From a phage: a stretch of 64,000 nt of DNA. The stretch is from NCBI GenBank assembly GCA_014816185.1, contig GCA_014816185.1_4095.1. One strand, 5' to 3'. Position 1 is the stretch's first letter. Each line of letters opens with the position of its first letter. Positions 18,016 through 64,000 of the stretch are shown here, one piece after another. The notes beneath the pieces were generated by a model. It did not search any database. It was given only the letters and a program-made list of their open reading frames with translations, and was not told the origin of the DNA. A program made the position numbers and the translations under genes.

Positions 18016-18023
18016 ATTCCCTC

Positions 18024-48392: not shown

Positions 48393-48598
48393 AAACTATA
48401 ACACGAACCCAATCATACGGTCTTATCTTGAAATACATGGACTTAATGGTGGATATCAGCAAAGACCTTCCTAAAACTGAAATTGAAGTTGCAAGAGCAG
48501 AGATCCGCATGTTGGCTGTACTGAACACAAACCATCAGGAAGATTATGTTGAAGAATGGATTCGATTTTTAATTCAAGATATAAAGAGTAAATTATGA
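48389..48598 (+). CDS. GTNYQE-family small protein
   Basis: LNTNHQEDYV..IKSKL. Confidence 0.55.
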   Translation: MKTITRTQSYGLILKYMDLMVDISKDLPKTEIEVARAEIRMLAVLNTNHQEDYVEEWIRFLIQDIKSKL

Positions 48599-48810
48599 TT
48601 ATTATAGAAAACTCATATCAATATACTGAACGCATCGCTGCCAGACAACTTGAAATCCTCATAATATACGAAGAGACTTCTGATTTAAACTTAGCCGAGG
48701 TATTGGAAAATGATATACTATTGGGTGCATTCTTAGGAACAGACTATCAGAAGTATTATGAGGAAAAGTATTTGTCATCTCTTGAGAAATATATCAGGAG
48801 CAAATTATGA
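48595..48810 (+). CDS. GTNYQE-family small protein
   Basis: LGTDYQKYY..IRSKL. Confidence 0.55.
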   Translation: MIIIENSYQYTERIAARQLEILIIYEETSDLNLAEVLENDILLGAFLGTDYQKYYEEKYLSSLEKYIRSKL

Positions 48811-49019
48811 TTTTTTTAACACCAGAAGAATATAAGAAACGTTTCAATTCCGCACAGGGTGAAATCTTACTTATATACCTTTCAAATGCAGACCTTAACT
48901 TATCAAGGGTATTAGAAAAAGATTTACTTATGGGTGCATTCCTTGATACAGACTTTCAGGTGTATTATGTAGGGGAATACTTAATTGCACTTCAAAATTA
49001 TATCAGGAGTAAACTATGA
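48807..49019 (+). CDS. GTNYQE-family small protein
   Basis: close paralog of 48595. Confidence 0.55.
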   Translation: MIFLTPEEYKKRFNSAQGEILLIYLSNADLNLSRVLEKDLLMGAFLDTDFQVYYVGEYLIALQNYIRSKL

Positions 49020-49234
49020 AACATTTAAGTAACTCCGAGAAGAATAAAATTATCGTTGCTGCAATAAACAAATATTTTACACTTCCTCACACAGAAGGTT
49101 TATGTGTAAGGGAACACAGGATAAACACCACCGATATACGCATGATGGCTGTACTGGGGACGAACTTTCAGGAAGAGTATGTTGTTGCACACATAGTTGC
49201 CCTCACTGATTTAATAAGGGACAAATGCAAATGA
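49016..49234 (+). CDS. GTNYQE-family small protein
   Basis: LGTNFQEEYV. Confidence 0.55.
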   Translation: MKHLSNSEKNKIIVAAINKYFTLPHTEGLCVREHRINTTDIRMMAVLGTNFQEEYVVAHIVALTDLIRDKCK

Positions 49235-49539
49235 AACACTTAACTGATGATGAATTTGAAACTATAATTCGTAAACTAACCCCCATCACAAGGATAGTCT
49301 ACGGTGACCCCAGCCTTACATGGAACCAAATGCGAGCTAAAGTTAATGAGCTATGGTTGCTGTACTTTATGGGGACTCAATATCAAGATAAGTTTTGCAC
49401 AGAATATATCGAACAATTAACGAATGTTATACAGGATAAACTAGATGATTATTTGCTCACAAAACATGAAGATTTTATCAGGAGTGGAGTATCAGACTGC
49501 CCTCTTCTCTCTTCTAAACACCCTCCGCACGAACAATAA
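49225..49539 (+). CDS. GTNYQE-family protein with C-terminal read-through extension
   Basis: MGTQYQDKF; junction reads aaactaGATGA where the family pattern would be aaactATGA, so the stop is lost and the ORF runs 31 codons into the next gene. Confidence 0.45.
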   Translation: MQMKHLTDDEFETIIRKLTPITRIVYGDPSLTWNQMRAKVNELWLLYFMGTQYQDKFCTEYIEQLTNVIQDKLDDYLLTKHEDFIRSGVSDCPLLSSKHPPHEQ

Positions 49540-49717
49540 ACTTTATAATTCCCGTGAAGCTGATATCGTCAACGCTGATGTATATCTTAATAAATTCATA
49601 GGGACTAACTATCAAGAACTGTTCACTCTACGATATATCGCTGCATTGAGAAACGAAATATCAGATAAAACCCGTCAAGCCAGAAGAGAATGGAATAAAC
49701 AATGCGACACAGACTAA
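49445..49717 (+). CDS. GTNYQE-family small protein
   Basis: IGTNYQELF. Confidence 0.5.
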   Translation: MIICSQNMKILSGVEYQTALFSLLNTLRTNNKLYNSREADIVNADVYLNKFIGTNYQELFTLRYIAALRNEISDKTRQARREWNKQCDTD

Positions 49718-49953
49718 ATCACAAAATGTATTGTAAACTATTACAGACACTGGCACAGAAACACTATGACACTGTATCTGAAATATTACCCTATGATATC
49801 ATGCGTTTAATTCATAGTGAGGCAGAGATGCTTGTACTGATGACAGGCACTGATAAAAAAGCAATTGCCAAATCAATAGATATGTTCATCGAAGCACAAT
49901 GTCAACACATTAGAACCGAGATATGGAGACGAGAGAATGATAACACTAAATGA
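49702..49953 (+). CDS. GTNYQE-family-like small protein (divergent)
   Basis: MTGTDKKAI in place of the motif. Confidence 0.45.
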   Translation: MRHRLNHKMYCKLLQTLAQKHYDTVSEILPYDIMRLIHSEAEMLVLMTGTDKKAIAKSIDMFIEAQCQHIRTEIWRRENDNTK

Positions 49954-50152
49954 GTTTCAGTATCATTGGAGGTTACAAACTATCAAATCAAAAGTGTATA
50001 GTATTGTGTTAAACAAATCTATTGCACAAGAGGACAAATGTGTTATAATAGCTGAAATGAAGTTGGGTGCTTTCGTAGGGACAAACTATCAAAACATCTA
50101 CACTGACGTATTGTTAAGTGCCTTACGTAACAAGGTGGTATCCAAAATATGA
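49937..50152 (+). CDS. GTNYQE-family small protein
   Basis: VGTNYQNIY. Confidence 0.55.
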   Translation: MITLNEFQYHWRLQTIKSKVYSIVLNKSIAQEDKCVIIAEMKLGAFVGTNYQNIYTDVLLSALRNKVVSKI

Positions 50153-50367
50153 GAAATTTACAAGGCTTTGAATACATCAGACTCCTGAAAACATGTGGAA
50201 GCAGAAGGAGAATGATATCAAGCGATAAGAGCATCCAAGCTAACCTTAAGCACGCACTAGTAACTGAACTCTATGTAGGTGCACTCTTAGGCACAAACTA
50301 TCAACAAATGTATGTGGATCTATGGATTGACGCTCTACAGAAAGAGGTTAAAAGTAAATGCAAATGA
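50149..50367 (+). CDS. GTNYQE-family small protein
   Basis: LGTNYQQMYV. Confidence 0.55.
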   Translation: MRNLQGFEYIRLLKTCGSRRRMISSDKSIQANLKHALVTELYVGALLGTNYQQMYVDLWIDALQKEVKSKCK

Positions 50368-50576
50368 TTAATTTAAGTAAAGACGAATTTTATGTTATAC
50401 TGGCGAAAACTTATCCAGCACGTAAGGCCGTTTATGATAGTCACATTATTGAACCCTCAAAGAAGTTGATTTTAGTAAATGAGATAAAGATGCTTTCAGT
50501 CTTAGGAACAAACTATCAAGAGAATGCTGTACTGATGTTAATTGATGCCCTCCAGCGAGAGGTTAAACGTAAATGA
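50358..50576 (+). CDS. GTNYQE-family small protein
   Basis: LGTNYQENAV. Confidence 0.55.
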   Translation: MQMINLSKDEFYVILAKTYPARKAVYDSHIIEPSKKLILVNEIKMLSVLGTNYQENAVLMLIDALQREVKRK

Positions 50577-50803
50577 AAATGATTAATTTAACTTACCATG
50601 AATATCAAAAACGTTTAAATGCATCCAGAGATATAAGGATTCAAATATTCAATAACAAAAGATTGAAGCCTGATATCAGGAAAATCAAAATCATAGAAGC
50701 CGTGTTGTGCAACTTCCTAGGGACTAACTATCAGGAAGGTAAGGTAGAAAACTATCTTATAGAACTCATGAATAGTATTGAAAATAAATGTAAGGGTAAT
50801 TAA
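50573..50803 (+). CDS. GTNYQE-family small protein
   Basis: LGTNYQEGKV; 3' end duplicated at 51038-51076. Confidence 0.55.
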   Translation: MKMINLTYHEYQKRLNASRDIRIQIFNNKRLKPDIRKIKIIEAVLCNFLGTNYQEGKVENYLIELMNSIENKCKGN

Positions 50804-50804
50804 C

Positions 50805-51044
50805 ATGAAAATGATTAAATTATCTCAAGCAAAATATAAAGAACGCCTGGTAAAAATTGCACCTGGACTTAATGAAATCCATCACGGAGAAGTCATTAAA
50901 CACGGAAATAAGATGATTATGAAACTTGAGTTAAAGGTGGGTGCATTCATAGGAACAAACTATCAGGAGTATTATGTAGATGAATACATAATCGCACTTA
51001 AGAGATACATTGGAAGAAAACTATATCTACAAACTAAAGAATAG
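50805..51044 (+). CDS. GTNYQE-family small protein
   Basis: start MKMIKLSQ; IGTNYQEYYV. Confidence 0.55.
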   Translation: MKMIKLSQAKYKERLVKIAPGLNEIHHGEVIKHGNKMIMKLELKVGAFIGTNYQEYYVDEYIIALKRYIGRKLYLQTKE

Positions 51045-51073
51045 TATTGAAAATAAATGTAAGGGTAATTAAC

Positions 51074-51394
51074 ATGCAAATGATCAATTTAAGTAAAGAT
51101 GAATATACCGAGCGTATGACAAAAATTACGCACAAACGTAATACAATCTATCACAACCCAGAAATTCAACACAGTAAGAAAATGATTATGATGCGTGAGT
51201 TAAAGATGGGTGTATTCTTAGGAACAAACTATCAAGATACAGAAGTAAATCGCTTAATCGCGGAGTTGCTACTGGAAATCAGAGGTAAGCTGTACTTTCA
51301 TCAAATGACCCAACCACTGAGGTGTACTAAGAAATGTTCAACATCACATTGCAAGAAAGATTCATCCGAATCAACTATGCAATTACCAAATTAG
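51074..51394 (+). CDS. GTNYQE-family protein with C-terminal extension
   Basis: start MQMINLSK; LGTNYQDTEV; extends ~40 codons past family length into next gene. Confidence 0.45.
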   Translation: MQMINLSKDEYTERMTKITHKRNTIYHNPEIQHSKKMIMMRELKMGVFLGTNYQDTEVNRLIAELLLEIRGKLYFHQMTQPLRCTKKCSTSHCKKDSSESTMQLPN

Positions 51395-51549
51395 ATGCTA
51401 CTATAGGATTCCAAAGTCTACCATACAAAACCAGATTGTTATTAGAGTGTGAAGCTAAGTTGGGTGTACTGTTAGGGACGCAACACCAACAACGATATGT
51501 GGAAATCTGGATTGACCTTTTAACCCAAAATATATATGAGAGAATGTAA
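51334..51549 (+). CDS. GTNYQE-family small protein
   Basis: LGTQHQQRYV. Confidence 0.5.
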   Translation: MFNITLQERFIRINYAITKLDATIGFQSLPYKTRLLLECEAKLGVLLGTQHQQRYVEIWIDLLTQNIYERM

Positions 51550-51780
51550 ATGCAAAATGAAATGATATACTTAACGAATGAAGAATTTCAAGAGAAGATG
51601 TTAAAAACCAAAAACATTACTCTTAAGTTCGTTCCAAATCAATCAATATCTGAAGTATCTGCAAATGTATTGTTTCAGAAGCTACCATACGTTCTTGGAA
51701 CTGATAAACAAGAATTTATGGTTCAAAATATGATTGAACATCTTATAATGAGTATTAAGGAAAAAGTAAATGCAAAATGA
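51550..51780 (+). CDS. GTNYQE-family small protein
   Basis: LGTDKQEFMV. Confidence 0.55.
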   Translation: MQNEMIYLTNEEFQEKMLKTKNITLKFVPNQSISEVSANVLFQKLPYVLGTDKQEFMVQNMIEHLIMSIKEKVNAK

Positions 51781-52024
51781 AATGATATACTTAACCTATA
51801 ATGAATACGTCGAGAGATTAGTTCGTGCCAAGAGATATACCAATAAACGTCCAATTGACCTAAACCAAACCCCAGCAGAAAGGAGTGCAGAAGTATTATT
51901 CCAATCACTACCATATCTTCTGGGAACTGATAGACAAGAGGAATATGTTGCACGTATGATTAGATATCTTAAAATCACTATTAAGGAAAAAGTAAATGCA
52001 AATGAAATACTTAACAGACGATGA
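51770..52024 (+). CDS. GTNYQE-family small protein
   Basis: LGTDRQEEYV; paralog of 51550. Confidence 0.55.
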   Translation: MQNEMIYLTYNEYVERLVRAKRYTNKRPIDLNQTPAERSAEVLFQSLPYLLGTDRQEEYVARMIRYLKITIKEKVNANEILNRR

Positions 52025-52247
52025 GTTAAAAGAACGACTAATTAAATCAAGAAAACATACAAATCAACTTCCAAACGACACAAACAAGTCTCCAGCGGAA
52101 AGGAGTGCAGAAGTTTTATACATTCAACTCATGTACTTTCTTGGCACTGACAGACAAGAGTATTACATTGAAAGTATGCTTCGATATCTTAAATTCTCTA
52201 TAAAGGAAAAGATACATGATCAAGTATTTAAAAATCCTAACTGCTAA
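51996..52247 (+). CDS. GTNYQE-family small protein
   Basis: LGTDRQEYYI. Confidence 0.55.
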   Translation: MQMKYLTDDELKERLIKSRKHTNQLPNDTNKSPAERSAEVLYIQLMYFLGTDRQEYYIESMLRYLKFSIKEKIHDQVFKNPNC

Positions 52248-52458
52248 TGAATATCATAAGATTGTAATGAAGACTAATAGTGCTTACGCTAAAAAATCAA
52301 ACCCCAAGTACATACTGGAACACACATTTGAAGAACGTCAATTAGCTTTAGTTGAAGCAAAACTTCTTGCACTATTAGGAACAAACTATCAGGAAGAATA
52401 CAATAGAAAACTAATATACCTTTTAACTAAACATATAAGAAAAAGAAAAAATGCATGA
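52216..52458 (+). CDS. GTNYQE-family small protein
   Basis: LGTNYQEEY. Confidence 0.55.
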   Translation: MIKYLKILTANEYHKIVMKTNSAYAKKSNPKYILEHTFEERQLALVEAKLLALLGTNYQEEYNRKLIYLLTKHIRKRKNA

Positions 52459-52685
52459 AACACTTGACAGATGATGAACATGGGCTTATAGTAATGGATG
52501 TAATCAACATCGAATACAAAAAGTTGATACGCTATCGTTGTTATGAAGATAAGCAACTCGTTCTAGCAGAACAGAAGTTGTTTCGACTCTTAAACACAAA
52601 CTACCAAGCACAATACGAAGAATCGTATATGTACCTTTTGGCGAGGAAAGCAAAAAGAGATTATGAAAATTTTAAGCAAAGGTGA
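52455..52685 (+). CDS. GTNYQE-family small protein
   Basis: LNTNYQAQY. Confidence 0.55.
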   Translation: MKHLTDDEHGLIVMDVINIEYKKLIRYRCYEDKQLVLAEQKLFRLLNTNYQAQYEESYMYLLARKAKRDYENFKQR

Positions 52686-52884
52686 TTCAGTAATATTACT
52701 TATAGAGAGTTCAAGTAAATTCTTAAACATAACACTGTCTGATATAGATGAAGATGATAAAGAAGTACTGAGAGCAGATTTAAGAGTACTGTTACATATC
52801 GGAACAAACCTACAAGAAGAATATGTAGAGTGCTACATTAATGAACTTAAAGAATCAGTACTGAGAAAATGCAAATGCAAATGA
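52663..52884 (+). CDS. GTNYQE-family small protein
   Basis: IGTNLQEEYV. Confidence 0.55.
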   Translation: MKILSKGDSVILLIESSSKFLNITLSDIDEDDKEVLRADLRVLLHIGTNLQEEYVECYINELKESVLRKCKCK

Positions 52885-53108
52885 AAATCATTTCACCCAC
52901 AGAATACAACCAACTATTAAGTAGTTTAATTCTAAAGCTGTTTATAACAAAAAGCATGAAATTACCAGATGATGAAATAAGTATTCTAGTAAGTGAAATC
53001 TATGTTCAAGCTACACTAGGGACTAACTATCAAGAATGCAATATTAATGATTACATCAATGAACTAAAAAGGTTTATCCAATGCAAATGCGAATCATTAC
53101 CGAAGTAG
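52869..53108 (+). CDS. GTNYQE-family small protein
   Basis: LGTNYQECN. Confidence 0.55.
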   Translation: MQMQMKIISPTEYNQLLSSLILKLFITKSMKLPDDEISILVSEIYVQATLGTNYQECNINDYINELKRFIQCKCESLPK

Positions 53109-53323
53109 AATACCTAACAATCATAAATGGACTGTTTTCGAAGTTATTTGCCATTAACACATCAAAACTTCCAGATTCTGATAAAATTATTAAGTTAAAT
53201 GAAATCTACGTTCAAGCTACTCTAGGAACAAACTATCAAGAAGCCAATGTGTATAATTACATTAATACACTCAAAAGGGTAATACAATTAAAATGCACAG
53301 ACAGCACACACACAAACCCCTAG
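53081..53323 (+). CDS. GTNYQE-family small protein
   Basis: LGTNYQEANV; close paralog of 52869. Confidence 0.55.
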   Translation: MQMRIITEVEYLTIINGLFSKLFAINTSKLPDSDKIIKLNEIYVQATLGTNYQEANVYNYINTLKRVIQLKCTDSTHTNP

Positions 53324-53523
53324 GAACAGCAGAATACATTGAACTAATGGCTGCAAACTTCTCATCCTTTAAGAAACTGATGCAAGAATCAAAGAATGAT
53401 TTAGAATATCACATCAAAAGTTCAGATTTAAGATTGCTACTCACTCTAGGAACAGATTCCCAAGAGCGATTTGTCAATGAGCATATTAGAGCACTTTTAA
53501 ATGGCATCAGGAATAAACTATGA
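53293..53523 (+). CDS. GTNYQE-family small protein
   Basis: LGTDSQERFV. Confidence 0.5.
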   Translation: MHRQHTHKPLGTAEYIELMAANFSSFKKLMQESKNDLEYHIKSSDLRLLLTLGTDSQERFVNEHIRALLNGIRNKL

Positions 53524-53735
53524 AGGAAATATCAAATCAAGAGTACTTGGCACTATTCAGGAAGAATAATCACAAATATATGGCACTTGATTCAAGAACT
53601 GATATAAGTGAACTTGAAAAAAATCTTTTGCGTTCAGAGATGATAGTACTGACACTCTTAGGAACACAGCATCAAGAGAGAACTGTTAATTCACACATAG
53701 GGATTCTTATGCAGATAGTTCAGGAAAAGATATGA
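53520..53735 (+). CDS. GTNYQE-family small protein
   Basis: LGTQHQERTV. Confidence 0.55.
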   Translation: MKEISNQEYLALFRKNNHKYMALDSRTDISELEKNLLRSEMIVLTLLGTQHQERTVNSHIGILMQIVQEKI

Positions 53736-53953
53736 GAATCATAACACAACAAGATATTCTTAAGTTCACAAGGGTTCATGCATCTGAATTTGATGCTATA
53801 TTATCAAAAAGTTACAACAACCCTTATACACAAGATGTACATTACAGTGAATTATGGATGTATATACTTTTAGGTACAAATAAGCAAGAGCAAGCCGTAC
53901 AGAAGTATTTGACAGCTTTACGTGATGCTACTGCTAATGGAGTATGTGTTTAA
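53732..53953 (+). CDS. GTNYQE-family small protein
   Basis: LGTNKQEQAV. Confidence 0.55.
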   Translation: MRIITQQDILKFTRVHASEFDAILSKSYNNPYTQDVHYSELWMYILLGTNKQEQAVQKYLTALRDATANGVCV

Positions 53954-53954
53954 T

Positions 53955-54197
53955 ATGAAAGTACTGACAGAACTAGAAATGTATCATAGATTTAATAAGT
54001 ACTATCATTTACTTAAGCCTATACAGAGGATTAAATGTCCATTTGAAGAGAAACAGGTTTTAATCTATGAGCACAAGTTCTTTGTATCATTAGGTACAGA
54101 TCAACAAGAGTACTATTTGACGTTGTACTTGATTACATTAATAGATTTAATTCACTATAAAACCAAACAAGCTAATAAAGAGAAATATGAAAACTAA
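53955..54197 (+). CDS. GTNYQE-family small protein (last in array)
   Basis: start MKVLTELE; LGTDQQEYYL. Confidence 0.5.
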   Translation: MKVLTELEMYHRFNKYYHLLKPIQRIKCPFEEKQVLIYEHKFFVSLGTDQQEYYLTLYLITLIDLIHYKTKQANKEKYEN

Positions 54198-54531
54198 TAT
54201 ACAACTCAAGGTATATAAATCATTTGAACATACATATATCAAAAGTAGTCTATGTAGAGATGTAATGGATTACAAGGGTAAGCCATTCACAATTACCTAT
54301 GATTCTTATGTTAGTGATTTATATATATCATTTGTTAATTACGAAAATAAAATATACAAGCACGTTGATATTAAAGATTTAAGTACTTTATCACCAGAGG
54401 AATACTTTCAGGAATCATTAGTATGGGATTTAGAGTTTCCTATGCCATTAGTACATAAGATGATAGTACTAATGAAAGAATCTAAACAGGAGCCTAATGG
54501 TGATTATGAAGAACACACAGTTGAGTACTGA
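54187..54531 (+). CDS. FQxSL-family protein
   Basis: LSPEEYFQESLVWDLEFP. Confidence 0.55.
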   Translation: MKTNIQLKVYKSFEHTYIKSSLCRDVMDYKGKPFTITYDSYVSDLYISFVNYENKIYKHVDIKDLSTLSPEEYFQESLVWDLEFPMPLVHKMIVLMKESKQEPNGDYEEHTVEY

Positions 54532-54892
54532 TAATATTAAGAGTTATACAAGCTCAAGTACTGTGACAATCGAAGTGAATTCTATTAATGCTGGTAATGC
54601 AGTAGATAAGTTCTTTATTGCTCAAGGGTACAGGAAAGATATTCATCAATATTGTTCAGTATATGGGGAGTACAATAGTACTGAAGATATAATTTATTGG
54701 TCAACACATCAAGATTATCTAACTAAAATTGGAGTTCCAGATGTTAGTACTTTATCTGAAGAAGAATACTTTCAGTACAGCTTAGTACATGATGTACCTA
54801 TACCTTTAGGGTTAATCAAGGGTATACAGGAAGAGGTTCATAAGCTTAAATCCATGAGTAAAGGTACTTTCATTAGAACAGTGCAATACTAG
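54497..54892 (+). CDS. FQxSL-family protein
   Basis: LSEEEYFQYSLVHDVP; start may be 54506. Confidence 0.55.
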   Translation: MVIMKNTQLSTDNIKSYTSSSTVTIEVNSINAGNAVDKFFIAQGYRKDIHQYCSVYGEYNSTEDIIYWSTHQDYLTKIGVPDVSTLSEEEYFQYSLVHDVPIPLGLIKGIQEEVHKLKSMSKGTFIRTVQY

Positions 54893-54951
54893 CTTGACAG
54901 TACTTTTCATTACTGATATAGTACACTAACGTTAATCATAGGGTAAAAATT

Positions 54952-55197
54952 ATGTTAAATTTTTTAAATTTCCTTATCGTTTTGTGTATTGTTCTTGGGA
55001 TTGCACCATTTGTATTGTATTTCATGGATTCAGATGAAATGCAGAAGATGAATTGCACAAGGACAGGACAGAGTAGAGTAGAGACGATTCTTATGCCTGT
55101 TACGGTTATTGTTAACAACATGCCCATTACGAACATGGTCCCTACCCTAACGACAACGTACCAGTACTCTTGTGCTGACGGTGAGAGGTGGAGATGA
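54952..55197 (+). CDS. small membrane protein
   Basis: 81 aa; hydrophobic N-terminus. Confidence 0.45.
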   Translation: MLNFLNFLIVLCIVLGIAPFVLYFMDSDEMQKMNCTRTGQSRVETILMPVTVIVNNMPITNMVPTLTTTYQYSCADGERWR

Positions 55198-55505
55198 AAT
55201 TTAATATAGCAAAAACATCGAGTATATGTATTTTTGGTTATGCTGATGAGTTAGGTGATATTGACATTCTTTTGTACAAAAAGGATGGTGTTATGCATTT
55301 CAAGTACCAGGATGAAGAGGCAGACAATTATCCTTTACCTAATTTAGTACAAATGCAGGAAGATGAATTATTCCAGTACAGCTTAGTATACGACATTGAT
55401 ATTTGCACGATGCCAGTACTAATTAGTATTCAAAAAGTGATGCTCGATATGTATGATAAGCTAATACAAGGTACATCAGGGAGAATCATTGAAATTGACA
55501 TATAA
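55188..55505 (+). CDS. FQxSL-family protein
   Basis: QEDELFQYSLVYDID. Confidence 0.55.
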   Translation: MEMKFNIAKTSSICIFGYADELGDIDILLYKKDGVMHFKYQDEEADNYPLPNLVQMQEDELFQYSLVYDIDICTMPVLISIQKVMLDMYDKLIQGTSGRIIEIDI

Positions 55506-55701
55506 GAATATACCTAATGCATATGAAATGAAGTACAGGGAGTTTATTAAAAATGTACACACCGATCCTTTTAATATCAAAATATCAGATTTTGATGTAT
55601 TATTTTATCTAGGGACAATAGCACAGGATCAATGCGTTGATAAGCTCATATGGTCCTTGAAAATGGAGATACAATGCAGACCCAAATATATAAAAAGGTA
55701 G
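55489..55701 (+). CDS. GTNYQE-like small protein embedded in FQxSL array
   Basis: FYLGTIAQDQCV. Confidence 0.45.
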   Translation: MKLTYKNIPNAYEMKYREFIKNVHTDPFNIKISDFDVLFYLGTIAQDQCVDKLIWSLKMEIQCRPKYIKR

Positions 55702-55937
55702 ATTCTTTATTGTACGCTTCAAAGTACAGGGATTTTTGTTTACGAGGGGGAGAGGAAGATTTCTCTCTGAGATTATCTGAATTTAATATGTTATTTTATC
55801 TTGGTACAAAAGATCAAGAAGATACAGTACAGAAATTTATCAAGCACCTTGAACAAAAAATTCATATGCAAATTTTTATGCTTAAGGTACATAATGAGAT
55901 AAACAAATATGAACCCAACAATAGTACAGGATCTTAA
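55674..55937 (+). CDS. GTNYQE-like small protein embedded in FQxSL array
   Basis: start MQTQIYKK; FYLGTKDQEDTV. Confidence 0.45.
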   Translation: MQTQIYKKVDSLLYASKYRDFCLRGGEEDFSLRLSEFNMLFYLGTKDQEDTVQKFIKHLEQKIHMQIFMLKVHNEINKYEPNNSTGS

Positions 55938-56295
55938 ACAAGTAATATTCCTTTTGAATACCAGAAGTGAATTGTATACAGAGTTAAAAGAGATTAATGC
56001 ATTTTATCAGAATTTTGTAATCCAAGAGTTCAGTGATTTAATTACAGATGCATTATTTGAATTCTCGGAGAAATACAAAGGAACAGAGTTCAGTGTTAAG
56101 AATGTTATTCGTCCAAGTACAAGGAAAATTATATTATCACATTTTACATTTGACAATAAAGATTTATTCAGTCATAATCCAAGTACAGCTTTATATTTTA
56201 TTCCTGATTCAGATAAAAATCATCCTATTCATTACGGATGGATTTTGTCATATATAGTACAAGGAAAGGAGTATCCTATTAAATGGAAAGATTAG
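55909..56295 (+). CDS. hypothetical protein
   Basis: 128-aa ORF. Confidence 0.5.
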   Translation: MNPTIVQDLKQVIFLLNTRSELYTELKEINAFYQNFVIQEFSDLITDALFEFSEKYKGTEFSVKNVIRPSTRKIILSHFTFDNKDLFSHNPSTALYFIPDSDKNHPIHYGWILSYIVQGKEYPIKWKD

Positions 56296-56443
56296 GGCGA
56301 TTAGATTATTACACAATTAATACAAATTATTTGTTGCGTAATATAAAATCCGATTACAAAATATGGATAAAGAACAGAGATAGCATGTGTTATGAATTTT
56401 ATTTAGATTATGCTATCAAACGATTTTTAAGAGAAGAACATTA

Positions 56444-56647
56444 ATGCAAAAGATTAATACGATAACATTAAATGCATTACAGGATTCATTATTAGATAGT
56501 ATTAAGATGTATTACAATATACATTTGAAGGGTGGTATTGATGATTACGATTATTATTTGAGTTTAATTACATTTGAGCACCTTTCAGTACAGGACAGGA
56601 TTTTACATCCTACAAATCCTAGGTATCCATCGATAGGTAAATTATGA
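56444..56647 (+). CDS. hypothetical small protein
   Basis: 67-aa ORF. Confidence 0.4.
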   Translation: MQKINTITLNALQDSLLDSIKMYYNIHLKGGIDDYDYYLSLITFEHLSVQDRILHPTNPRYPSIGKL

Positions 56648-57198
56648 ATGAGATAGAGTTATTAGCACACAAGATAAGTACAATAATGCTTATCCTCAAT
56701 AACAACCATCCTATATCGCAGATAGATGGAATCCTGAGTCAGAGGACAGGTGGTAGTTTATATTTGTCCATAAACGCAGATATCGCAAGGAAATACATTG
56801 ATATTGACATTGATGTTGAAATCGAATATGATACAACGGGGATTGTTGGTGTAGGTGCATTAATCAGTTCAAATCCAGTATCAGCATCCCCATTGACCAA
56901 AGATGTTAGTACAGGATTCGAAGGGTATTTGTGGTACAATACCAATGATGATTATTTTATATATCAGCATTCCAATACAAATTATGATGAAGACAAATTT
57001 CAGTTCATAGACCCTTATGATGAAGCTGAAGTATTTCAAAAATCATTAATCACAAAACCGCATGAGATGATGTATCTAATTTTATTCAGTACAATGCATT
57101 TGAATCCATTAATTAAAGGTTTAAAATTTTATATTCAATTAAATTTAGTCCATGTAGTTTATGATTTATTAATGCAAGGATATAGTTATGAAGTATAA
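56644..57198 (+). CDS. FQxSL-family protein
   Basis: DEAEVFQKSLITKP. Confidence 0.5.
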   Translation: MNEIELLAHKISTIMLILNNNHPISQIDGILSQRTGGSLYLSINADIARKYIDIDIDVEIEYDTTGIVGVGALISSNPVSASPLTKDVSTGFEGYLWYNTNDDYFIYQHSNTNYDEDKFQFIDPYDEAEVFQKSLITKPHEMMYLILFSTMHLNPLIKGLKFYIQLNLVHVVYDLLMQGYSYEV

Positions 57199-57499
57199 AA
57201 TGATGTATACCCCAGATATGATTTATGTTGAATTAGAAGATGATGACGATGGGTGGAATTTGATTTATTCAAGAAGTTCAGGTTGGTACATGGCACATTT
57301 AAATGATTCGATAGTTACAGATTATTTTGTAGATTTCAATACATTATCCGATGAAGAATTGTTCCAACAGCAATTAGTGATTGACACGGGTGGTTATGAT
57401 GTCTTATTATTAAAAAAGATACAGAAAGCTGTTATTGATTTTAAGCCCATGATATGGCAAAGGAAATATTATGACCTCGAAGTACCGTACCAGCAATGA
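57188..57499 (+). CDS. FQxSL-family protein
   Basis: SDEELFQQQLVIDTG. Confidence 0.5.
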   Translation: MKYKMMYTPDMIYVELEDDDDGWNLIYSRSSGWYMAHLNDSIVTDYFVDFNTLSDEELFQQQLVIDTGGYDVLLLKKIQKAVIDFKPMIWQRKYYDLEVPYQQ

Positions 57500-58037
57500 T
57501 ATTCAGTACACCTACGCTAATGCAATCCTTATGGGACAAAAGTTAGCTTGTATTGTTGCAGCCTTATATAATGCACAGAAATATCACAAGCGTCATTTCC
57601 ACAAATGTATTGGTATTATTCCATCGAAGTACAATACATATATTGCGTGCACGAGTCATTTTGATAAACGATTCAATACACCAGATACACCAAATGCCCG
57701 TAGTGTTATTGGTCTTTTGGATTTCGCACCTGGTGCTGTTATTGGAAAGAATGATTTAGAGTACGCATGGTATAATAAAAATGCCCCGTTAGTAATGGTA
57801 ACATATGATAACGAAACGAACAACGCAATAGAGTACAATACATATAAATCAGAGGAAGAATTTTTCCAAGGTTCATTGCTTGTACCAGTGCGTTTATTGT
57901 TTTATAATGTCCTTATTAGTACAGTACACAATAGTCCATTACACAAGAATCACAAAATTAATTTCAATTTTTGTGCTTATGCGATTGATGGTGTGTATGA
58001 GTGTTTAATGGAGGTATTGAGTTATGAAGCTGAATAA
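57471..58037 (+). CDS. FQxSL-family protein
   Basis: SEEEFFQGSLLVP. Confidence 0.5.
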   Translation: MTSKYRTSNDIQYTYANAILMGQKLACIVAALYNAQKYHKRHFHKCIGIIPSKYNTYIACTSHFDKRFNTPDTPNARSVIGLLDFAPGAVIGKNDLEYAWYNKNAPLVMVTYDNETNNAIEYNTYKSEEEFFQGSLLVPVRLLFYNVLISTVHNSPLHKNHKINFNFCAYAIDGVYECLMEVLSYEAE

Positions 58038-58365
58038 TACATTTGATATTAATAAGTTAAGAGAATGGTTTTATAGTATTGAAATTGAAGCCATCCCGTA
58101 TCATAGATATGAACAATATAATTTAACCAGTATTGATATCAGTGAGTTGTACGCGTATTATCAAAGTGCATTAGAGATGCATAAGTTATTTTTGAGTACA
58201 GATTTTGTTCTAAATTACAATTTTGAGGAATTTAATAATTATAATTTAGTACAGAAATATGTAGTAGCAAAGTACATGTACCTTCAAGGAATTACAAGTA
58301 TAGTGGAATTCAATACAGTCCTTGCTTTAGTTGAGGTAATTTTATGCAGTACATGTATGATTTAG
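58024..58365 (+). CDS. hypothetical protein
   Basis: 113-aa ORF. Confidence 0.45.
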   Translation: MKLNNTFDINKLREWFYSIEIEAIPYHRYEQYNLTSIDISELYAYYQSALEMHKLFLSTDFVLNYNFEEFNNYNLVQKYVVAKYMYLQGITSIVEFNTVLALVEVILCSTCMI

Positions 58366-58850
58366 AGTTCAGCTTAGATGCTGCATTTAAATATGTTCAC
58401 AAGATAGAAACAATATACAGTACATTATGTGCAATAAAATCAGTAACAGAAGAGCTTGATGTTGGTGAAAAATATCAGGTATGGAATAATACATTTTTAA
58501 ATAAAGAACGTTGCTCTACGGGGTTTAATATTTTAACATTTAATCCCAGCAATTGTTACCCAGAGAAGCATGAACGTTATCCGAATGACGACATGTGGTT
58601 TGAGTACAAAGAAGATTGTGATATGTCGTTCATTGAAGTTCCTGATGATTTTAATGCACAAGATTTAACAGACGAGTGGTGGTTCCAGCAGAATTTAGTC
58701 CACGATGATATTGATTTATTTTTTTATGTAGTATTTAAAATGCTTTATCACAACAATATAGTACAAGATAGTGTATTTTTTTCATGTCTATATATTGATG
58801 ATTTGTACAATGAAATTCAAATCAACATGCCCAGAACGCCTGTATCGTAA
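58344..58850 (+). CDS. FQxSL-family protein
   Basis: TDEWWFQQNLVHDDID. Confidence 0.5.
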   Translation: MQYMYDLEFSLDAAFKYVHKIETIYSTLCAIKSVTEELDVGEKYQVWNNTFLNKERCSTGFNILTFNPSNCYPEKHERYPNDDMWFEYKEDCDMSFIEVPDDFNAQDLTDEWWFQQNLVHDDIDLFFYVVFKMLYHNNIVQDSVFFSCLYIDDLYNEIQINMPRTPVS

Positions 58851-58902
58851 GATATGGGCTTTTTTCGTTTTGGTATTGACATAGAAGACCAAAGCTGTTA
58901 TC

Positions 58903-59445
58903 ATGTGTATTCATTTTAAAGGAGAACATATAGTGAGTTTCATAATCCCAAGTACATACGAAGATGCATCAAGTGCAGTTCATAAGATTCATTATATTTT
59001 TAATTTAATTATTAAATCTGCAAAAATTAAAATGTATGCACCTCTTGTGACAAATAATCGAAATGAAGAAATTTTTATTAGCACAGACAAAATTATTTTT
59101 CCATATTTCAATGAAGATAGATTGTGGTTCATACATTTAGCTGCATTACAAAAATATAAGATGTCAATTCGTAATAATTTGGTTATACCGTTATATCATC
59201 CCGATATTGGAGAGGATGAATATTTTCAGTACAGCACAGTACACCGCCATGAAGATATCTTTGCTGCTATGCTTATTGCTAAATTGAACACCGTTGATTT
59301 GGAGCAGTACAAATACAATAATAAATCATGTAAGATCATAATCCCTGCATTCATAGCTCTTTATGATTATGTGGTGCATAACAAAAAAGATGATACATAT
59401 GCTTTCAATGAAGAGTATTTGAATTTTTTTAAGGAGAACATATGA
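58903..59445 (+). CDS. FQxSL-family protein
   Basis: GEDEYFQYSTVHRHED; possible GTG start at 58933 after AAGGAG. Confidence 0.5.
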   Translation: MCIHFKGEHIVSFIIPSTYEDASSAVHKIHYIFNLIIKSAKIKMYAPLVTNNRNEEIFISTDKIIFPYFNEDRLWFIHLAALQKYKMSIRNNLVIPLYHPDIGEDEYFQYSTVHRHEDIFAAMLIAKLNTVDLEQYKYNNKSCKIIIPAFIALYDYVVHNKKDDTYAFNEEYLNFFKENI

Positions 59446-59969
59446 GCAGTGAAGTGCAGAAATCAATGACATTCAATGAAATTGGTGCATTTAAAGATAA
59501 GATTATTGATTGCATTGAATACATGATTTGTAGTAATATCGAAAGTATTGAGATATTTAACAAGACAAATCGCTCTTACCATATGATGTACATTGCAAAC
59601 AATAATGGTATCATTCCATTTATTTCGGATAGTACAATATGGTACGCATGTGATACGAAAAAATACACAGCAGGTTCGTATAGCTTAGGGTCACATACGG
59701 AATTGATTATTCCTGAGCATTGTATGCAAGAAGAAGAATATTTTCAAATGCAATGTATACATTCACCATTAGTGTTGTTTAGTTTATATATTATACCTTA
59801 TATCACCAAATGTGTTCATGAGAATAAAGCTCCGTGGAATCATGAATTTGTATCGTTGAAGTTATTGTATAATGTATTAGTAGAATATTATGATTACAGG
59901 CACAATGGTACAATCAGTGATGTATGGGATTTTGAATCGCTAAGGGTGAAAACATACACAGGTGAATGA
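59442..59969 (+). CDS. FQxSL-family protein
   Basis: QEEEYFQMQCIHSP. Confidence 0.5.
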   Translation: MSSEVQKSMTFNEIGAFKDKIIDCIEYMICSNIESIEIFNKTNRSYHMMYIANNNGIIPFISDSTIWYACDTKKYTAGSYSLGSHTELIIPEHCMQEEEYFQMQCIHSPLVLFSLYIIPYITKCVHENKAPWNHEFVSLKLLYNVLVEYYDYRHNGTISDVWDFESLRVKTYTGE

Positions 59970-59970
59970 T

Positions 59971-60585
59971 ATGACCAGAATTAAAATGTATGATTTGATG
60001 CAGTACAGTAAAATTGCCATTCCGGTGCTTAATAAAGTGCTGGATGCATTCATTGCCAAATACCCTGAGAATTCAGTGTTATGTATTCCATTTAGTGTTC
60101 CAGATAAAGATGATATATTCCAAGTGAATGTCAGTACACGTGGTATTACATTACAGCAGAAATACATGGATACGGAATATTATGGAATAAAGTTGGATTC
60201 AGTACAGGGTTCAAAATCAGCCTATGATTTTTTTGTTCCTAATAATATAGAGTCATGGGAAACAAACATTTCAAAGAAAGATGAAAATGATGTTCCTATT
60301 AGTGGTGTGTTCAACAATAAAGTTTTTTATTATTACGAAACCGACAAATTCCCTGAAGAGTTATATTACAATTCAGAAATGAATGAAGATGTAGATGCAT
60401 TCATGTTTCAATTATCGTTAGTACATGATATCATTGATGTTCAAGAGTTAAGAGCAGAAATCAATTTAGCTAAAGAGTTATCGGACATGCTGCCACCGTT
60501 TAGTATGCTTTTTTGTGAAGGTGGTTATTTTTCAAAAGAAGTGTTTGAACATTTCGTAGATGTTGTAAAAGGGTTGGATATATAG
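59971..60585 (+). CDS. FQxSL-family protein
   Basis: start ATG 59971 (MTRIK); VDAFMFQLSLVHDI. Confidence 0.5.
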   Translation: MTRIKMYDLMQYSKIAIPVLNKVLDAFIAKYPENSVLCIPFSVPDKDDIFQVNVSTRGITLQQKYMDTEYYGIKLDSVQGSKSAYDFFVPNNIESWETNISKKDENDVPISGVFNNKVFYYYETDKFPEELYYNSEMNEDVDAFMFQLSLVHDIIDVQELRAEINLAKELSDMLPPFSMLFCEGGYFSKEVFEHFVDVVKGLDI

Positions 60586-60586
60586 T

Positions 60587-60781
60587 ATGCTTACAGTTGA
60601 TGTTAAACAAAAATACCGTAAGTTTGATTGGTTCACCGACAGTTTCCAGCTTGAATTATTACATTTGAATATCTGTGAAACATTATGTGCAGAAACACAA
60701 GATGAATTTGATGATAGAGTGATGAACATAGTAATGCTTTCTTGTTTTAAACATTTTGGTTATTTTTTCGGACAGAATTGA
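60587..60781 (+). CDS. hypothetical small protein
   Basis: 64-aa ORF. Confidence 0.4.
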   Translation: MLTVDVKQKYRKFDWFTDSFQLELLHLNICETLCAETQDEFDDRVMNIVMLSCFKHFGYFFGQN

Positions 60782-60789
60782 GGTAAAAA

Positions 60790-61305
60790 ATGCATCAACA
60801 CAAGCATCATTCATATGATTTTGCAATTAACATTATGAAGTTCATTCGAGCGTTGGAGGATGGTAAGCTTAGTCATAAGTACAAGAAAGAGGGTAACAAT
60901 TGGTTCAGAAATGATTCCGAGTTCAGTTGTCATAAAATCGTGTATAGTAATCAGTACAGTGCCAATTACCTACAAGATGTAGTGATGTGTTTTGAATATG
61001 TGTTGCAGTTCAGGGGTTCAATCCAAGATGAGTTGATGGAGAACATGTACATCCGATACCTTCCAATGCTCAAAGATGAAAATGTATTATTAAATTCAAT
61101 ATACCAACGAGTTCGTGAAATTGAGTGCAGGGATATATTAGATACAGAAGAATCGTATTTCCAGCAATCCCTGATTTATGCACCTGATTTATTACAGGTA
61201 CATAATTTGTTTAATACATTACGTCAAAACATCGGTACAGACATATTTTTGTCATTATCGGATTATGATACATTTGTCAAAGATTTAGAGGAAATAGGCT
61301 TATGA
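60790..61305 (+). CDS. FQxSL-family protein
   Basis: TEESYFQQSLIYAPD. Confidence 0.5.
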   Translation: MHQHKHHSYDFAINIMKFIRALEDGKLSHKYKKEGNNWFRNDSEFSCHKIVYSNQYSANYLQDVVMCFEYVLQFRGSIQDELMENMYIRYLPMLKDENVLLNSIYQRVREIECRDILDTEESYFQQSLIYAPDLLQVHNLFNTLRQNIGTDIFLSLSDYDTFVKDLEEIGL

Positions 61306-61646
61306 GTCGATTTTCGGTTTATATAGTAAACGTCAGTAAAGATGGTAGTTTAATTGAATTTGATGTAGTTGATAACAATGATAATTCATATGGTATTAAG
61401 GTACAGGACAATGATGTGCAGTTCAGTACAAGGACAAATTTTGAGAATCCAGTCCAAGTTCCGAATTTCATAGAAGATGAAGCTGCACGATTCCAATACG
61501 AAACGGCATATGACAATGTACATATGCATATTATTATGCAAACGAATTTAGTTCAATTAGTTCCTTTGTTCAGACAAAATATATATGTACATGAAGTCTC
61601 GATTAATGGCATTCAAAGTTCCGTTTTGTTTGGTACAAATATGTAA
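61302..61646 (+). CDS. FQxSL-family-like protein
   Basis: DEAARFQYETAYDN. Confidence 0.45.
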   Translation: MSRFSVYIVNVSKDGSLIEFDVVDNNDNSYGIKVQDNDVQFSTRTNFENPVQVPNFIEDEAARFQYETAYDNVHMHIIMQTNLVQLVPLFRQNIYVHEVSINGIQSSVLFGTNM

Positions 61647-61656
61647 GGAAAGTACA

Positions 61657-62208
61657 ATGAGTTCAATGAGTTTATTAGATACATTAGAAAAAGACAGAAG
61701 TGCCATTAAGCGTTTAAAAGAGCAAGTACAAAAGATTGTATACAACGTTGATAAGTTTGAAGTCCCAGGAAGATTTGGTGATATTTCCCATACGGAGATC
61801 AAATCCCTTAAGTCAGATTTGTTGATTAAAAATAAAAATGGGTTGATTTTAGTTTTGAGTTCAGATATGATGGGGGCAACACATAGTTATAATGCCGTAT
61901 CGGTGCGTTCCGAGTGTGAAGGTATATATCTATCACAGGGTTTCAATAGCGAGACACAGGTTTGTTTTTGTGATGCAGTACATGACCCTATGAAGTTCAC
62001 GAGAAGTGAAGCCCAAGCGTTATTAGAGCTATCAGACGAGAGTTTGTTTCAGTACAGTACAATGTATGACAATGATAAGCTTCGTTGTATGTACGCTGTA
62101 AAGCATTATACACAGGAGTTCTCTGGATTTGCATACCTTTTAGTTAGAACCAATACCAGATATATTGATATGTTAGAAGATTACATCGATAAAGTTGTTA
62201 ATGTATGA
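61657..62208 (+). CDS. FQxSL-family protein
   Basis: start MSSMSLLD after AGGA; SDESLFQYSTMYDND. Confidence 0.5.
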   Translation: MSSMSLLDTLEKDRSAIKRLKEQVQKIVYNVDKFEVPGRFGDISHTEIKSLKSDLLIKNKNGLILVLSSDMMGATHSYNAVSVRSECEGIYLSQGFNSETQVCFCDAVHDPMKFTRSEAQALLELSDESLFQYSTMYDNDKLRCMYAVKHYTQEFSGFAYLLVRTNTRYIDMLEDYIDKVVNV

Positions 62209-62230
62209 TGTATTATTATGTGATGGGATA

Positions 62231-62398
62231 ATGCTGATGAAAGAGTTATTTGAAGATCAGTTCAATACATATGTGGATAATATTCTTTATTCCAGCCGTG
62301 CTAGTCAACGAGGAAATCGTGCTTACAATATAGATTACCTATTAGTGGTGCTGAGTTCACAGTACACCTACGCTGTACAGAGGACATATTATGAATAA
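62231..62398 (+). CDS. hypothetical small protein
   Basis: start uncertain (track 62195). Confidence 0.3.
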   Translation: MLMKELFEDQFNTYVDNILYSSRASQRGNRAYNIDYLLVVLSSQYTYAVQRTYYE

Positions 62399-62594
62399 TT
62401 TTAGAGATGTTGCTAAGGAGAAGTTCAAGTGCAGTTTAGATTTTGGGTTAAATGATTTTCTTACATGCACAATGTACAGGAATGATGATTATGAGCAATC
62501 CGTAATTTCGTTGCACAGATATTTCGAAATAATTTACGCAAGATATCTTAGAAGGTTAGAGGGAATAGGGGATTGGAATTATGATTACGTTTGA
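62391..62594 (+). CDS. hypothetical small protein
   Basis: 67-aa ORF. Confidence 0.4.
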   Translation: MNNFRDVAKEKFKCSLDFGLNDFLTCTMYRNDDYEQSVISLHRYFEIIYARYLRRLEGIGDWNYDYV

Positions 62595-62817
62595 AGAACC
62601 AGAAACAATGAGTCCATATACGATGAAAGGTTTTGAATTCATGATGGATTCGATTTTGAAGAATTCGTGTTTAGTACACAATCCTGAGCGTGCAACAGTG
62701 AGGGAATATCAGGACAATGCATTACAGCGTGTAATGAATATGTACAGGAATACGAGTCGCAAGCTTTGTGCGTTGAAAAGGATTGAAGAAATCAAGGTTT
62801 CTAGGCTGAATAAATAG
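62581..62817 (+). CDS. hypothetical small protein
   Basis: 78-aa ORF. Confidence 0.4.
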   Translation: MITFEEPETMSPYTMKGFEFMMDSILKNSCLVHNPERATVREYQDNALQRVMNMYRNTSRKLCALKRIEEIKVSRLNK

Positions 62818-63015
62818 AGACGTTTCATTTTGACAGGCCGCAGGGGGGGGTCAAAAAAATTTCCGCTGAAAAACATGCTAAGGTATATGTTTAATATAAA
62901 GTTTTATATTGTGTTTTTCAGAGTACAGTTCATGTTTCCTTAAACAAAAAATACCCCGCCGCCGAACGTGCTCCTTATATTGGAGTTTACCTTATTAATT
63001 ATAGTAGAGATTAAG

Positions 63016-63393
63016 ATGGAAATAAAATATAATGAATTTTGTGCAAGGACATGGATGTACACTGGTGAGTTAGTTACGCACTCTAACTTATACAAGGGTG
63101 ATTTAAACTACGCTAGGGACAAGATTTTAAAGTACTGGAATGCTGACTTTTATTTGATGGATTTTAGTACTGGGTTTAGGGGTAAAGCAACCGAGATGTT
63201 GGACTATACAGTACTTGATGATGCTGCACTGTTTCAGGCGGCATTAGTATTTGATAAGAAGTACATCTGTACATTAGAAGAGATGATTGAATTACAGCGT
63301 AGAATTAAATGTATTCACAGGGAATGTATAGATATCTGGTGCAGTACTGGTGAAGATGATTTTTGTAATCATTTCAATCTAGGGGAAGTGTGA
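63016..63393 (+). CDS. FQxSL-family protein
   Basis: start MEIKYNEF; DDAALFQAALVFDKK. Confidence 0.5.
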   Translation: MEIKYNEFCARTWMYTGELVTHSNLYKGDLNYARDKILKYWNADFYLMDFSTGFRGKATEMLDYTVLDDAALFQAALVFDKKYICTLEEMIELQRRIKCIHRECIDIWCSTGEDDFCNHFNLGEV

Positions 63394-63554
63394 TGGAATT
63401 TGATTTTTTAATATCAGTACATTCTTTTAAGCACAGTTATCAGTACTTTTGTAATTTAAACAAAGGTGATTTGATTATGGATACAGATACAGAGGCTGTA
63501 TACAGTTCTAATATTCTGTACAAATTCAGTACTAATCTGAAGGAGATTTTATGA
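63393..63554 (+). CDS. small protein (53 aa), copy 1
   Basis: MEFDFLISVHSFKHSYQYFCNLNKGD; near-identical 5' part at 63922. Confidence 0.35.
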   Translation: MEFDFLISVHSFKHSYQYFCNLNKGDLIMDTDTEAVYSSNILYKFSTNLKEIL

Positions 63555-63922
63555 AAAAAGAAATTAGAATTCAATTCGGTATGAGGAAAAAAGAGGTCAT
63601 CTGTACACTGAATCATGCGGTCGTGGAAAGCCTTGGTGGTGCATTACAAAAATTCTCCCATTTTGTTCTTGTACTATATGAAAATGGGTCTTTTAAAATC
63701 TTCACATATGATGATTCAAAAAATTACCGTAATGATTTTGTAAATCTGACAGTACTGTCAGAAGAGGAATTCTTTCAGGAAAGTACTGTCTGGAATTTAC
63801 CAGGAGCACCAATTGAATACGTCCGTGCTACACAGGCAGAAATGATCAAAGTAATGCAGAACTATCCAGAAGATTATATGACTAAGTTTCCTGAATCTAT
63901 TTATGTAGAGGTTGAGTACTGA
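63551..63922 (+). CDS. FQxSL-family protein
   Basis: SEEEFFQESTVWNLPGAP. Confidence 0.5.
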   Translation: MKKEIRIQFGMRKKEVICTLNHAVVESLGGALQKFSHFVLVLYENGSFKIFTYDDSKNYRNDFVNLTVLSEEEFFQESTVWNLPGAPIEYVRATQAEMIKVMQNYPEDYMTKFPESIYVEVEY

Positions 63923-64000
63923 TGGAATTTGATTTTTTAATATCAGTACATACTTTCAAGCACAGTTATCAGTACTTTTGTAATTTAAACAAAGGTGATT
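63922..64000 (+). CDS. small protein, copy 2 (truncated by window end)
   Basis: MEFDFLISVHTFKHSYQYFCNLNKGD; partial. Confidence 0.3.
   Translation, partial: MEFDFLISVHTFKHSYQYFCNLNKGD

Follow-up and report, generated by a model that had tools for sequence, protein, structure and literature searches.

What is encoded by the crowded run of small genes at 54187-64000 of a 64,000-nucleotide stretch of phage DNA (contig GCA_014816185.1_4095.1 of assembly GCA_014816185.1; the whole stretch is called here the window), and what do their otherwise dissimilar products have in common? A first-pass annotation, made from the sequence, had described about 20 paralogous proteins sharing an acidic-aromatic motif with an F-Q-x-S core, and had speculated about a protease cleavage site. 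These genes belong to a large and old tandem family, named here the F-Q family. The reading that we favour, tentatively and at a little under an even chance, is that its members share a small acidic α+β scaffold whose core helix is the motif, are encoded in an arm of the genome that is not expressed late, and act inside the cell as a diversified host-binding set for take-over or anti-defence.

Members of the family are plus-strand open reading frames (ORFs) of 103-207 amino acids (aa) with a common central (L)(S/T)EEE(L/Y/F)FQxS(L/T)(V/I) motif, the remainder of the sequence being very divergent. A profile hidden Markov model (HMM) built from motif-centred segments recovers 15 ORFs of the window with E values of 1e-7 to 1e-20, 14 of them in 54187-63922 and one at 6389-7051, and under relaxed settings ORF 61302-61646 appears as a weak sixteenth member (E 0.027). 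Searched with a regular expression for the core motif, the window yields 14 ORFs, 13 of which lie in the flagged region, and the matching 40 kb of the related phage BF17 yields 44. The expression FQ.[STNQA][LTC][VILM] is matched by 15 ORFs (60 aa or longer), every one of them on the plus strand, whereas shuffled versions of these proteins give a mean of 0.47 and a maximum of 3. The paralogy is therefore genuine. The estimate of about 20 genes is too high for the window (14-16) and too low for the whole array, which in BF17 contains ~40 members over ~29 kb (record 27145 to ~56040; iterated HMM over the BF17 loci). As had been anticipated, the array thus continues beyond the window, which holds the first third of a ~40-gene tandem array. 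Copy number differs between the window phage and BF17 despite 97% identity: one extra family gene of BF17 (L001 18098-18604), flanked by the orthologues of 56644-57198 and 57188-57499, has no counterpart in the window. Tandem paralogues with a common core and a divergent remainder, copy-number change and mosaicism among close strains are all present, as in a lineage-specific multigene family.

The window comes from an Asteriusvirus, a RaK2-like jumbo coliphage with 97% identity to phAPEC6, BF17 and PBECO4, and the query coverage in related genomes is 89-100%. A megablast search of 54187-64000 against GenBank phages returned 36 records with identities of ~80%-98%, 22 of them with at least 80% query coverage. 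All 36 are Asteriusvirus (RaK2-like coliphages and Salmonella phages, 310-386 kb), such as EC22.5-2, phAPEC6, BF17, G17, slurp01, PBECO4 and 121Q, and the genes under the match are all annotated as hypothetical proteins, except for one "amidohydrolase 3" in phAPEC6. Full-length alignment searches yielded close orthologues only, and an exhaustive profile search was needed for remote members. Among 1.84 billion cluster representatives, no more than 61 proteins reached E<=1e-3 in this HMMER search; they are all small, and nearly all carry ...LSEEE(F/L/Y)FQxSLVW(D/E).... These matches include ~27 non-redundant tandem members on one 24-kb metagenome contig (Logan SRR31913103); another metagenome contig has a similar block of small ORFs devoid of Pfam domains, and most of the remaining matches are metagenome singletons. 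With respect to cultured phages, a tblastn search with the consensus detected, besides 36 Asteriusvirus records, only Erwinia phage Hallingskeid, and the same search with one metagenomic member found nothing. Hallingskeid has at least 21 tandem members, the short forms first and then the long forms, as in the coliphages. Proteins of Klebsiella phage RaK2 were matched by Foldseek against BFVD. The F-Q family is confined to RaK2-like jumbo phages.

As the first-pass annotation had supposed, the family corresponds to nothing that has a name. Neither 10 window members nor the 49 aligned members gave a Pfam match near the gathering score, and a given Pfam family was common to two of them at most. 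The family profile has no match among PDB sequences (best E 0.23), and PADLOC gave only single, scattered and weak matches, with nothing consistent. The members do match PHROGs 13866, 19795, 34516, 31297, 28680, 30243, 12674, 22855 and 15629, with E values of 1e-40 to 1e-144 for window members, all of them of "unknown function". PHROGs thus contains the same proteins as the F-Q family, but split into many small groups with no function given. Since cross-matches among these groups reach E values of 1e-3 to 1e-7 and the family HMM covers them, they belong to a single superfamily, with the F-Q helix as its common feature.

In a non-redundant set of 158 members from several phages, F and Q are each conserved in 100% of the sequences, and they are also the sole invariant columns of the window alignments. 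The serine two positions after Q is present in 85%, the three preceding glutamates in 77%, 67% and 67%, the L/T position is L in 63% and T in 24%, and the V/I position is V in 68% and I in 21%. Further on, an aspartate after V-W is found in 49% and a glutamine in the second predicted helix in 62%, and a terminal tyrosine is present in 100% of the short forms that reach that far. Outside the motif, paralogues are only ~20% identical. The invariance of F-Q is not merely a selection artefact, because an HMM from which the motif columns had been removed still recovers 58 proteins, of which 57 contain FQ.

A first AlphaFold model, of 55188-55505 with 15 sequences, was mediocre (predicted local distance difference test, pLDDT, 72). 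AlphaFold2 modelling of 63551-63919 with a 49-sequence alignment gave a pLDDT of 78.6 and a predicted template modelling score of 0.75, with agreement among the five models. The model begins with five antiparallel strands and a short turn; helix 71-79 comes next and is joined by a loop to helix 88-104, after which the chain ends in a short helix and a C-terminal strand (...VEY). The motif is helix 71-79 (EEEFFQEST), with a block-mean pLDDT of 90-97 the most confident part of a compact domain. A Ser-x-x-Glu capping box with a hydrophobic staple is the textbook pattern of a helix N-terminus, and, judging from the predicted secondary structure, L69-S70-E71-E72-E73-F74 would fit it, with L69 and F74 as the staple. 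The motif is thus predicted to be an N-capped helix that would pack on the five-stranded antiparallel sheet, as the presumed core of an α+β fold. The family is without a convincing structural relative; p32/Mam33 proteins are also very acidic, and their antiparallel sheet backed by helices resembles the F-Q model.

The first-pass annotation had pointed to the likeness between the motif and the sites of 3C/TEV-type (tobacco etch virus) proteases, and E-E-x-(Y/F)-F-Q-x-S could accordingly be the cleavage site of such an enzyme, or of another Gln-specific protease, at which the proteins would be processed. The TEV consensus is E-x-x-Y-x-Q followed by S or G, and the ~29% of members that read E-E-E-Y-F-Q fit its first part. 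However, the residue after Q (P1') is variable (Y 27%, E 17%, Q 16%, L 14%) and the conserved Ser (85%) stands at +2, not at +1; moreover, the AlphaFold prediction places the motif in a confident helix within a compact domain instead of an exposed linker. The only proteases seen are a ClpP homologue and a T4-type prohead protease, although no whole-genome scan of the 350-kb proteome for a chymotrypsin-fold cysteine protease was made. The T4 prohead protease cleaves after Glu, and the virion proteome, on which prohead processing would act, does not include the orthologues. With a variable P1', a folded helical context and no candidate protease among those seen, the cleavage idea fails, and we give it hardly any credence. 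A variant in which the proteins are prohead-protease substrates was also considered, as the L-S-E of the motif resembles the L/I-x-E cleavage rule of T4; it was rejected on the same absence from the virion proteome.

A different explanation of the motif is that the F-Q helix, together with the E-E-E and the glutamine of helix 2, docks all members on a common partner while the variable sheet recruits differing targets. Such a hub might be the ClpP-like protease of the phage together with an unfoldase of the host, the RNA polymerase, or another phage protein. This would account better for the absolute invariance of F and Q, which holds among 158 members that are otherwise ~20% identical and persists with the motif-free HMM. 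A second conserved polar residue, the Q found in 62% of the members, lies in helix 2, and the phage does encode a ClpP homologue. However, a packed helix with the top pLDDT, as modelled, is typical of a fold core, and the E-E-E, the S and the hydrophobic pattern are more simply explained as helix capping. Docking on a shared hub is therefore unlikely. Its most specific form, which is quite improbable, would make the array a set of ~40 modular adaptors, all docked by the F-Q helix on one hub (the ClpP-like protease paired with an AAA+ unfoldase of the host, or the RNA polymerase), their sheets capturing host defence or regulatory proteins. If true, this would be the bacterial-virus counterpart of the poxvirus ankyrin/F-box strategy or of that of the multigene families (MGF) of African swine fever virus (ASFV), and the array would be a ready catalogue of inhibitors of Escherichia coli immunity.

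The family is also distinguished by its acidity, with a median isoelectric point (pI) of 4.9 versus 6.9 for neighbouring small ORFs and net charges of about -26 to +8, mostly negative. These values, the acidic cluster that precedes the core helix and the early-like genomic position are all consistent with DNA mimics or polyanion decoys that titrate DNA- or RNA-binding defence proteins of the host, such as restriction enzymes or nucleoid proteins, in the manner of Ocr, ArdA and Arn. However, the fold is predicted to be that of a small domain of sheet plus helix, unlike an elongated mimic with patterned charges, several members are neutral or basic, and neither sequence nor structure matches a known DNA mimic. 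Mimicry as the general function of the family is distinctly unlikely, and it would in any case be a special case of the host-binding reading rather than a separate one.

Selection has maintained these genes. The ratio of nonsynonymous to synonymous substitution rates (dN/dS) is 0.05-0.58 in all informative orthologue pairs (versus BF17, phAPEC6 and Sharanji), which indicates purifying selection and hence maintained protein-coding genes. The identity of individual genes varies by strain in a mosaic pattern. The paralogues are old, since BLASTP similarity among window members is mostly limited to the 18-40 residues around the motif, and of 46 Asteriusvirus members, 13 match a protein of another phage lineage better than any in their own genome.

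The genomic position bears on when the array may be expressed. The ends of the BF17 record are duplicated (1-20589 equals 362905-383493), in agreement with the terminal repeat of 20,668 bp reported for Sharanji (PMC11895373). The BF17 repeat maps to 25686-47900 of the window and, since its duplicated ends map to these two positions, the physical left end lies near 25.7 kb in window orientation; the ORF-poor segment 24000-27000 contains this end. The order is then the repeat up to 47.9 kb, a second family of small proteins (LGTNxQE) at 48.2-54.2 kb and the F-Q array, which is on the inward-reading strand. A location of the array inside the terminal repeat had been suspected because the Sharanji record starts within the array; this was rejected, since the repeat ends at 47900, 6.3 kb upstream of the array, and the Sharanji record is merely cut inside it. 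In the RaK2-like phage CBB, a group of short ORFs that adjoins the terminal repeat has been read as early host-take-over genes (PMC5259590). Its setting is like that of the F-Q array: a one-strand run of short hypothetical ORFs, a ~22-kb terminal repeat and RpoD-type promoters (PMC5259590).

Promoter motifs were located by consensus scans. The 26-46 kb interval, in the terminal repeat, contains 11 perfect (12/12) sigma-70 promoters TTGACA-16/17-TATAAT, all on the plus strand, and 105 sigma-70-like sites versus 67 +/- 7 expected. Within the array, two near-consensus extended -10 promoters lie in rare intergenic gaps, one of them right after a terminator-like hairpin. The terminal repeat also has a recurrent hairpin, AAAGGGATTGACTCCGGTCAGTCCCTTT then GCTATTATAT, at 36349, 40376, 43642 and 46396. 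With respect to late signals, neither strand of the 64 kb contains the T4 late-promoter octamer TATAAATA, of which shuffles lead one to expect 15.5 +/- 3.8 copies, and ATAAATA occurs only twice in the whole window. Most of the RCC1-like genes at 7528-20476 have an upstream cassette, formed by the hairpin GCCAGTACTTGATACTGGC with a T-run and then GTATTAAATATAGTATAATGAATAAGGAGG; in this hairpin-plus-TAAATA cassette the hairpin is followed by TTAAATATAGTATAAT, and the F-Q array is without the cassette. These genes are 11 tandem paralogues of 245-433 aa on the minus strand, with RCC1-like repeats in both of the two scanned (Pfam). They correspond in position to RCC1-like genes beside the BF17 terminal repeat, and in size and annotation to virion "DNA condensation proteins" of phAPEC6.

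A further possibility is that the products travel with the DNA in the capsid, as inner-body proteins or as internal proteins that are injected; phiKZ would be the precedent, its inner-body proteins being paralogous. phAPEC6 does have an inner body with unidentified proteins (PMC7247149), into which a family of this kind might fit. However, the electrospray tandem mass spectrometry list of the phAPEC6 virion, with 62 proteins including the T4-type prohead protease, contains neither the F-Q orthologues gp445c-gp466c nor any other gene product between 347 and 549 (PMC7247149), although small or low-copy proteins could escape detection. As the array also belongs to the early-like arm and is devoid of the cassette that precedes virion genes, an inner-body role is very unlikely.

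Returning to the host-binding reading, the array would encode ~40 diverged paralogues of one small, cytoplasmic and mostly acidic protein, in which the conserved helix block would hold the core of the fold and leave the remaining surface free to vary. The set would have arisen by duplication, divergence and recombination, and its products, early or middle intracellular proteins, could be a "binder library", one scaffold with many specificities that binds or neutralises host proteins in take-over or anti-defence. The structural and evolutionary parts of this reading are well supported; it is with the timing and the function, both of which we infer, that most of the doubt lies. Several observations weigh against it. 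The absolute invariance of F and Q exceeds what a purely structural demand usually imposes, so that these residues could instead form a shared functional site, and the burial of the motif helix is presumed. Not all members are acidic, a few having a neutral or basic pI (7-9). Sigma-70-like sites at 46-64 kb are not above chance (86 versus 100 +/- 10 expected), and no transcriptome data for RaK2-like coliphages were found in the searchable literature, so the timing of the array is deduced from position and promoter motifs only.

Table 1. F-Q family genes and associated elements of the window (positions refer to the window; E values are those of the family HMM unless otherwise stated).
Position	Strand	Feature	Motif or element	Observations
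6389-7051	+	Outlying member, 220 aa	SSDLMFQYSLIHKD	E 2e-9; basic, pI 9.2; 47 kb from the array
54187-54531	+	Short member, 114 aa	SPEEYFQESLVWD	E 3e-18; BF17 orthologue identical; dN/dS 0.05-0.07 vs phAPEC6 and Sharanji
54497-54892	+	Short member, 131 aa	SEEEYFQYSLVHD	E 1.6e-20; C-terminus ...TVQY; dN/dS 0.48
54894-54922	+	Sigma-70-like promoter (suggestive)	TTGACA-17-TGnTATAGT	In the gap after 54497-54892; 11/12 matches, extended -10
55188-55505	+	Short member, 105 aa	QEDELFQYSLVYD	E 9e-20; PHROG 13866, E 1.6e-40 (unknown function)
55194	+	Likely true start of 55188-55505	ATG (MKFNIAK)	BF17 annotation starts there
56644-57198	+	Long member, 184 aa, N-terminal extension	DEAEVFQKSLIT	E 2.7e-12 (refined HMM 1e-20); PHROG 19795
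57188-57499	+	Short member, 103 aa	SDEELFQQQLVID	E 6e-16; 100% identical in 3 related phages
57471-58037	+	Long member, 188 aa	SEEEFFQGSLLV	E 6e-19; 31% identity to 56644-57198; dN/dS 0.27-0.49
58344-58850	+	Long member, 168 aa	TDEWWFQQNLVHD	E 6e-16; PHROG 34516; identity 84.5% to BF17, 100% to phAPEC6 (mosaic)
58838-58859	+	Terminator-like hairpin (suggestive)	Hairpin + T-run	Rare array gap
58876-58904	+	Sigma-70-like promoter (suggestive)	TTGACA-17-TGnTATCAT	Follows the hairpin; consensus scan
58903-59445	+	Long member, 180 aa	GEDEYFQYSTVHRH	E 2.6e-14; many close metagenome orthologues
59442-59969	+	Long member, 175 aa	QEEEYFQMQCIH	E 2.6e-17; dN/dS 0.5-0.6
59962-60585	+	Member, 207 aa; likely start 59971 (MTRIKMYD)	VDAFMFQLSLVHD (divergent)	E 8e-9; PHROG 31297
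60790-61305	+	Long member, 171 aa	TEESYFQQSLIY	E 2.8e-20; dN/dS 0.16-0.23
61302-61646	+	Possible degenerate member, 114 aa	EDEAARFQYETAYD	E 0.027; F-Q kept, S-L-V not
61585-62208	+	Member; likely start 61657 (MSSMSLLD, 183 aa)	SDESLFQYSTMYD	E 2.9e-16; start per BF17 annotation
62968-63393	+	Member; likely start 63016 (MEIKYNEF)	DDAALFQAALVFD	E 3.5e-16; orthologue of phAPEC6 gp447c
63390-63554	+	54-aa remnant, truncated 5' duplicate		Translations and DNA alignment
63551-63922	+	Short member, 123 aa	SEEEFFQESTVWN	E 2e-15; C-terminus ...VEVEY; AlphaFold-modelled
63922-64000	+	First 26 codons of next member, cut by window end	DTAELFQESLVFD (BF17)	118 aa in BF17

Two of the genes in Table 1 require comment. 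The first-pass annotation had seen a small gene beginning MEFDFLISVH that occurred twice, each time after an F-Q gene, as if it were a repeated partner. The ORF at 63390-63554 and that starting at 63922 do have MEFDFLISVH(S/T)FKHSYQYFCNLNKGD in common, and their DNA is near-identical over ~85 nt (27 codons) and then unrelated. Because the shared bases give way to divergence and the 63922 gene is complete in BF17, the former is a truncated 5' duplicate and the latter the start of a family member of 118 aa, and there is no conserved partner gene. The second case is phAPEC6 gp447c, the orthologue of 62968-63393, which is labelled "amidohydrolase 3", whereas the HMM places 62968-63393 in the F-Q family. 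This label looks like an annotation error, judging from the profile match; the Pfam scans covered other members only.

Other families of small paralogues are also found in the window. The LGT(N/D)xQE family, with at least 17 plus-strand ORFs of 66-115 aa (~75 aa) at 48192-54197 and 55489-55937, is directly upstream of the F-Q array and partly interleaved with its genes; no Pfam match was obtained in the two members tested. At 3566-6346, eight consecutive plus-strand ORFs of 104-141 aa are paralogous, very hydrophobic and membrane-like, and Pfam gave nothing for the three tested. These ORFs were considered as F-Q members owing to their similar size range and were rejected, being unrelated proteins of hydrophobic membrane type. 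A 256-aa ORF at 2728-3498 has weak P-loop, AAA and STAND-NTPase matches, all of them below or near the Pfam cut-offs.

Multigene families are known in several large DNA viruses, for instance the MGF of ASFV and the terminal-region families of poxviruses. The F-Q array resembles these and the expansion of phage G in having tens of tandem paralogues that take up several percent of the genome near one of its ends, one short conserved core and a copy number that varies by strain. However, the F-Q protein is unrelated to theirs, without zinc ribbon, ankyrin or any other named domain, and the host is a bacterium. The expansion of the Bacillus phage G, a zinc-ribbon family of ~35 copies, was called "unprecedented" in a survey of jumbo phages in which the F-Q family does not figure (Iyer et al. 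2021, PMC7824862). Paralogy in RaK2-like phages has been noted in general terms only (PMC3622015, PMC7247149, PMC5259590); the CBB paper counted only 22 paralogous ORFs in all and did not describe the family or its motif (PMC5259590). Since these remarks are general and the genes have been deposited as hypothetical proteins, the array is a previously undescribed lineage-specific multigene family of a large virus.

Most genes of jumbo phages are unexplained, and here ~8% of a 350-kb genome (~29 kb, ~40 genes) is taken up by one protein family that has no Pfam entry, has an invariant core of two residues and equals in size the 35-copy expansion of phage G. If the members are host-interaction proteins, they would constitute a compact natural library of binders against proteins of E. 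coli and other Enterobacteriaceae, and the array would be a tractable model of phage genome growth by duplication. If they are not, the new domain family would still allow dozens of orphan PHROGs to be collapsed into one in annotation.

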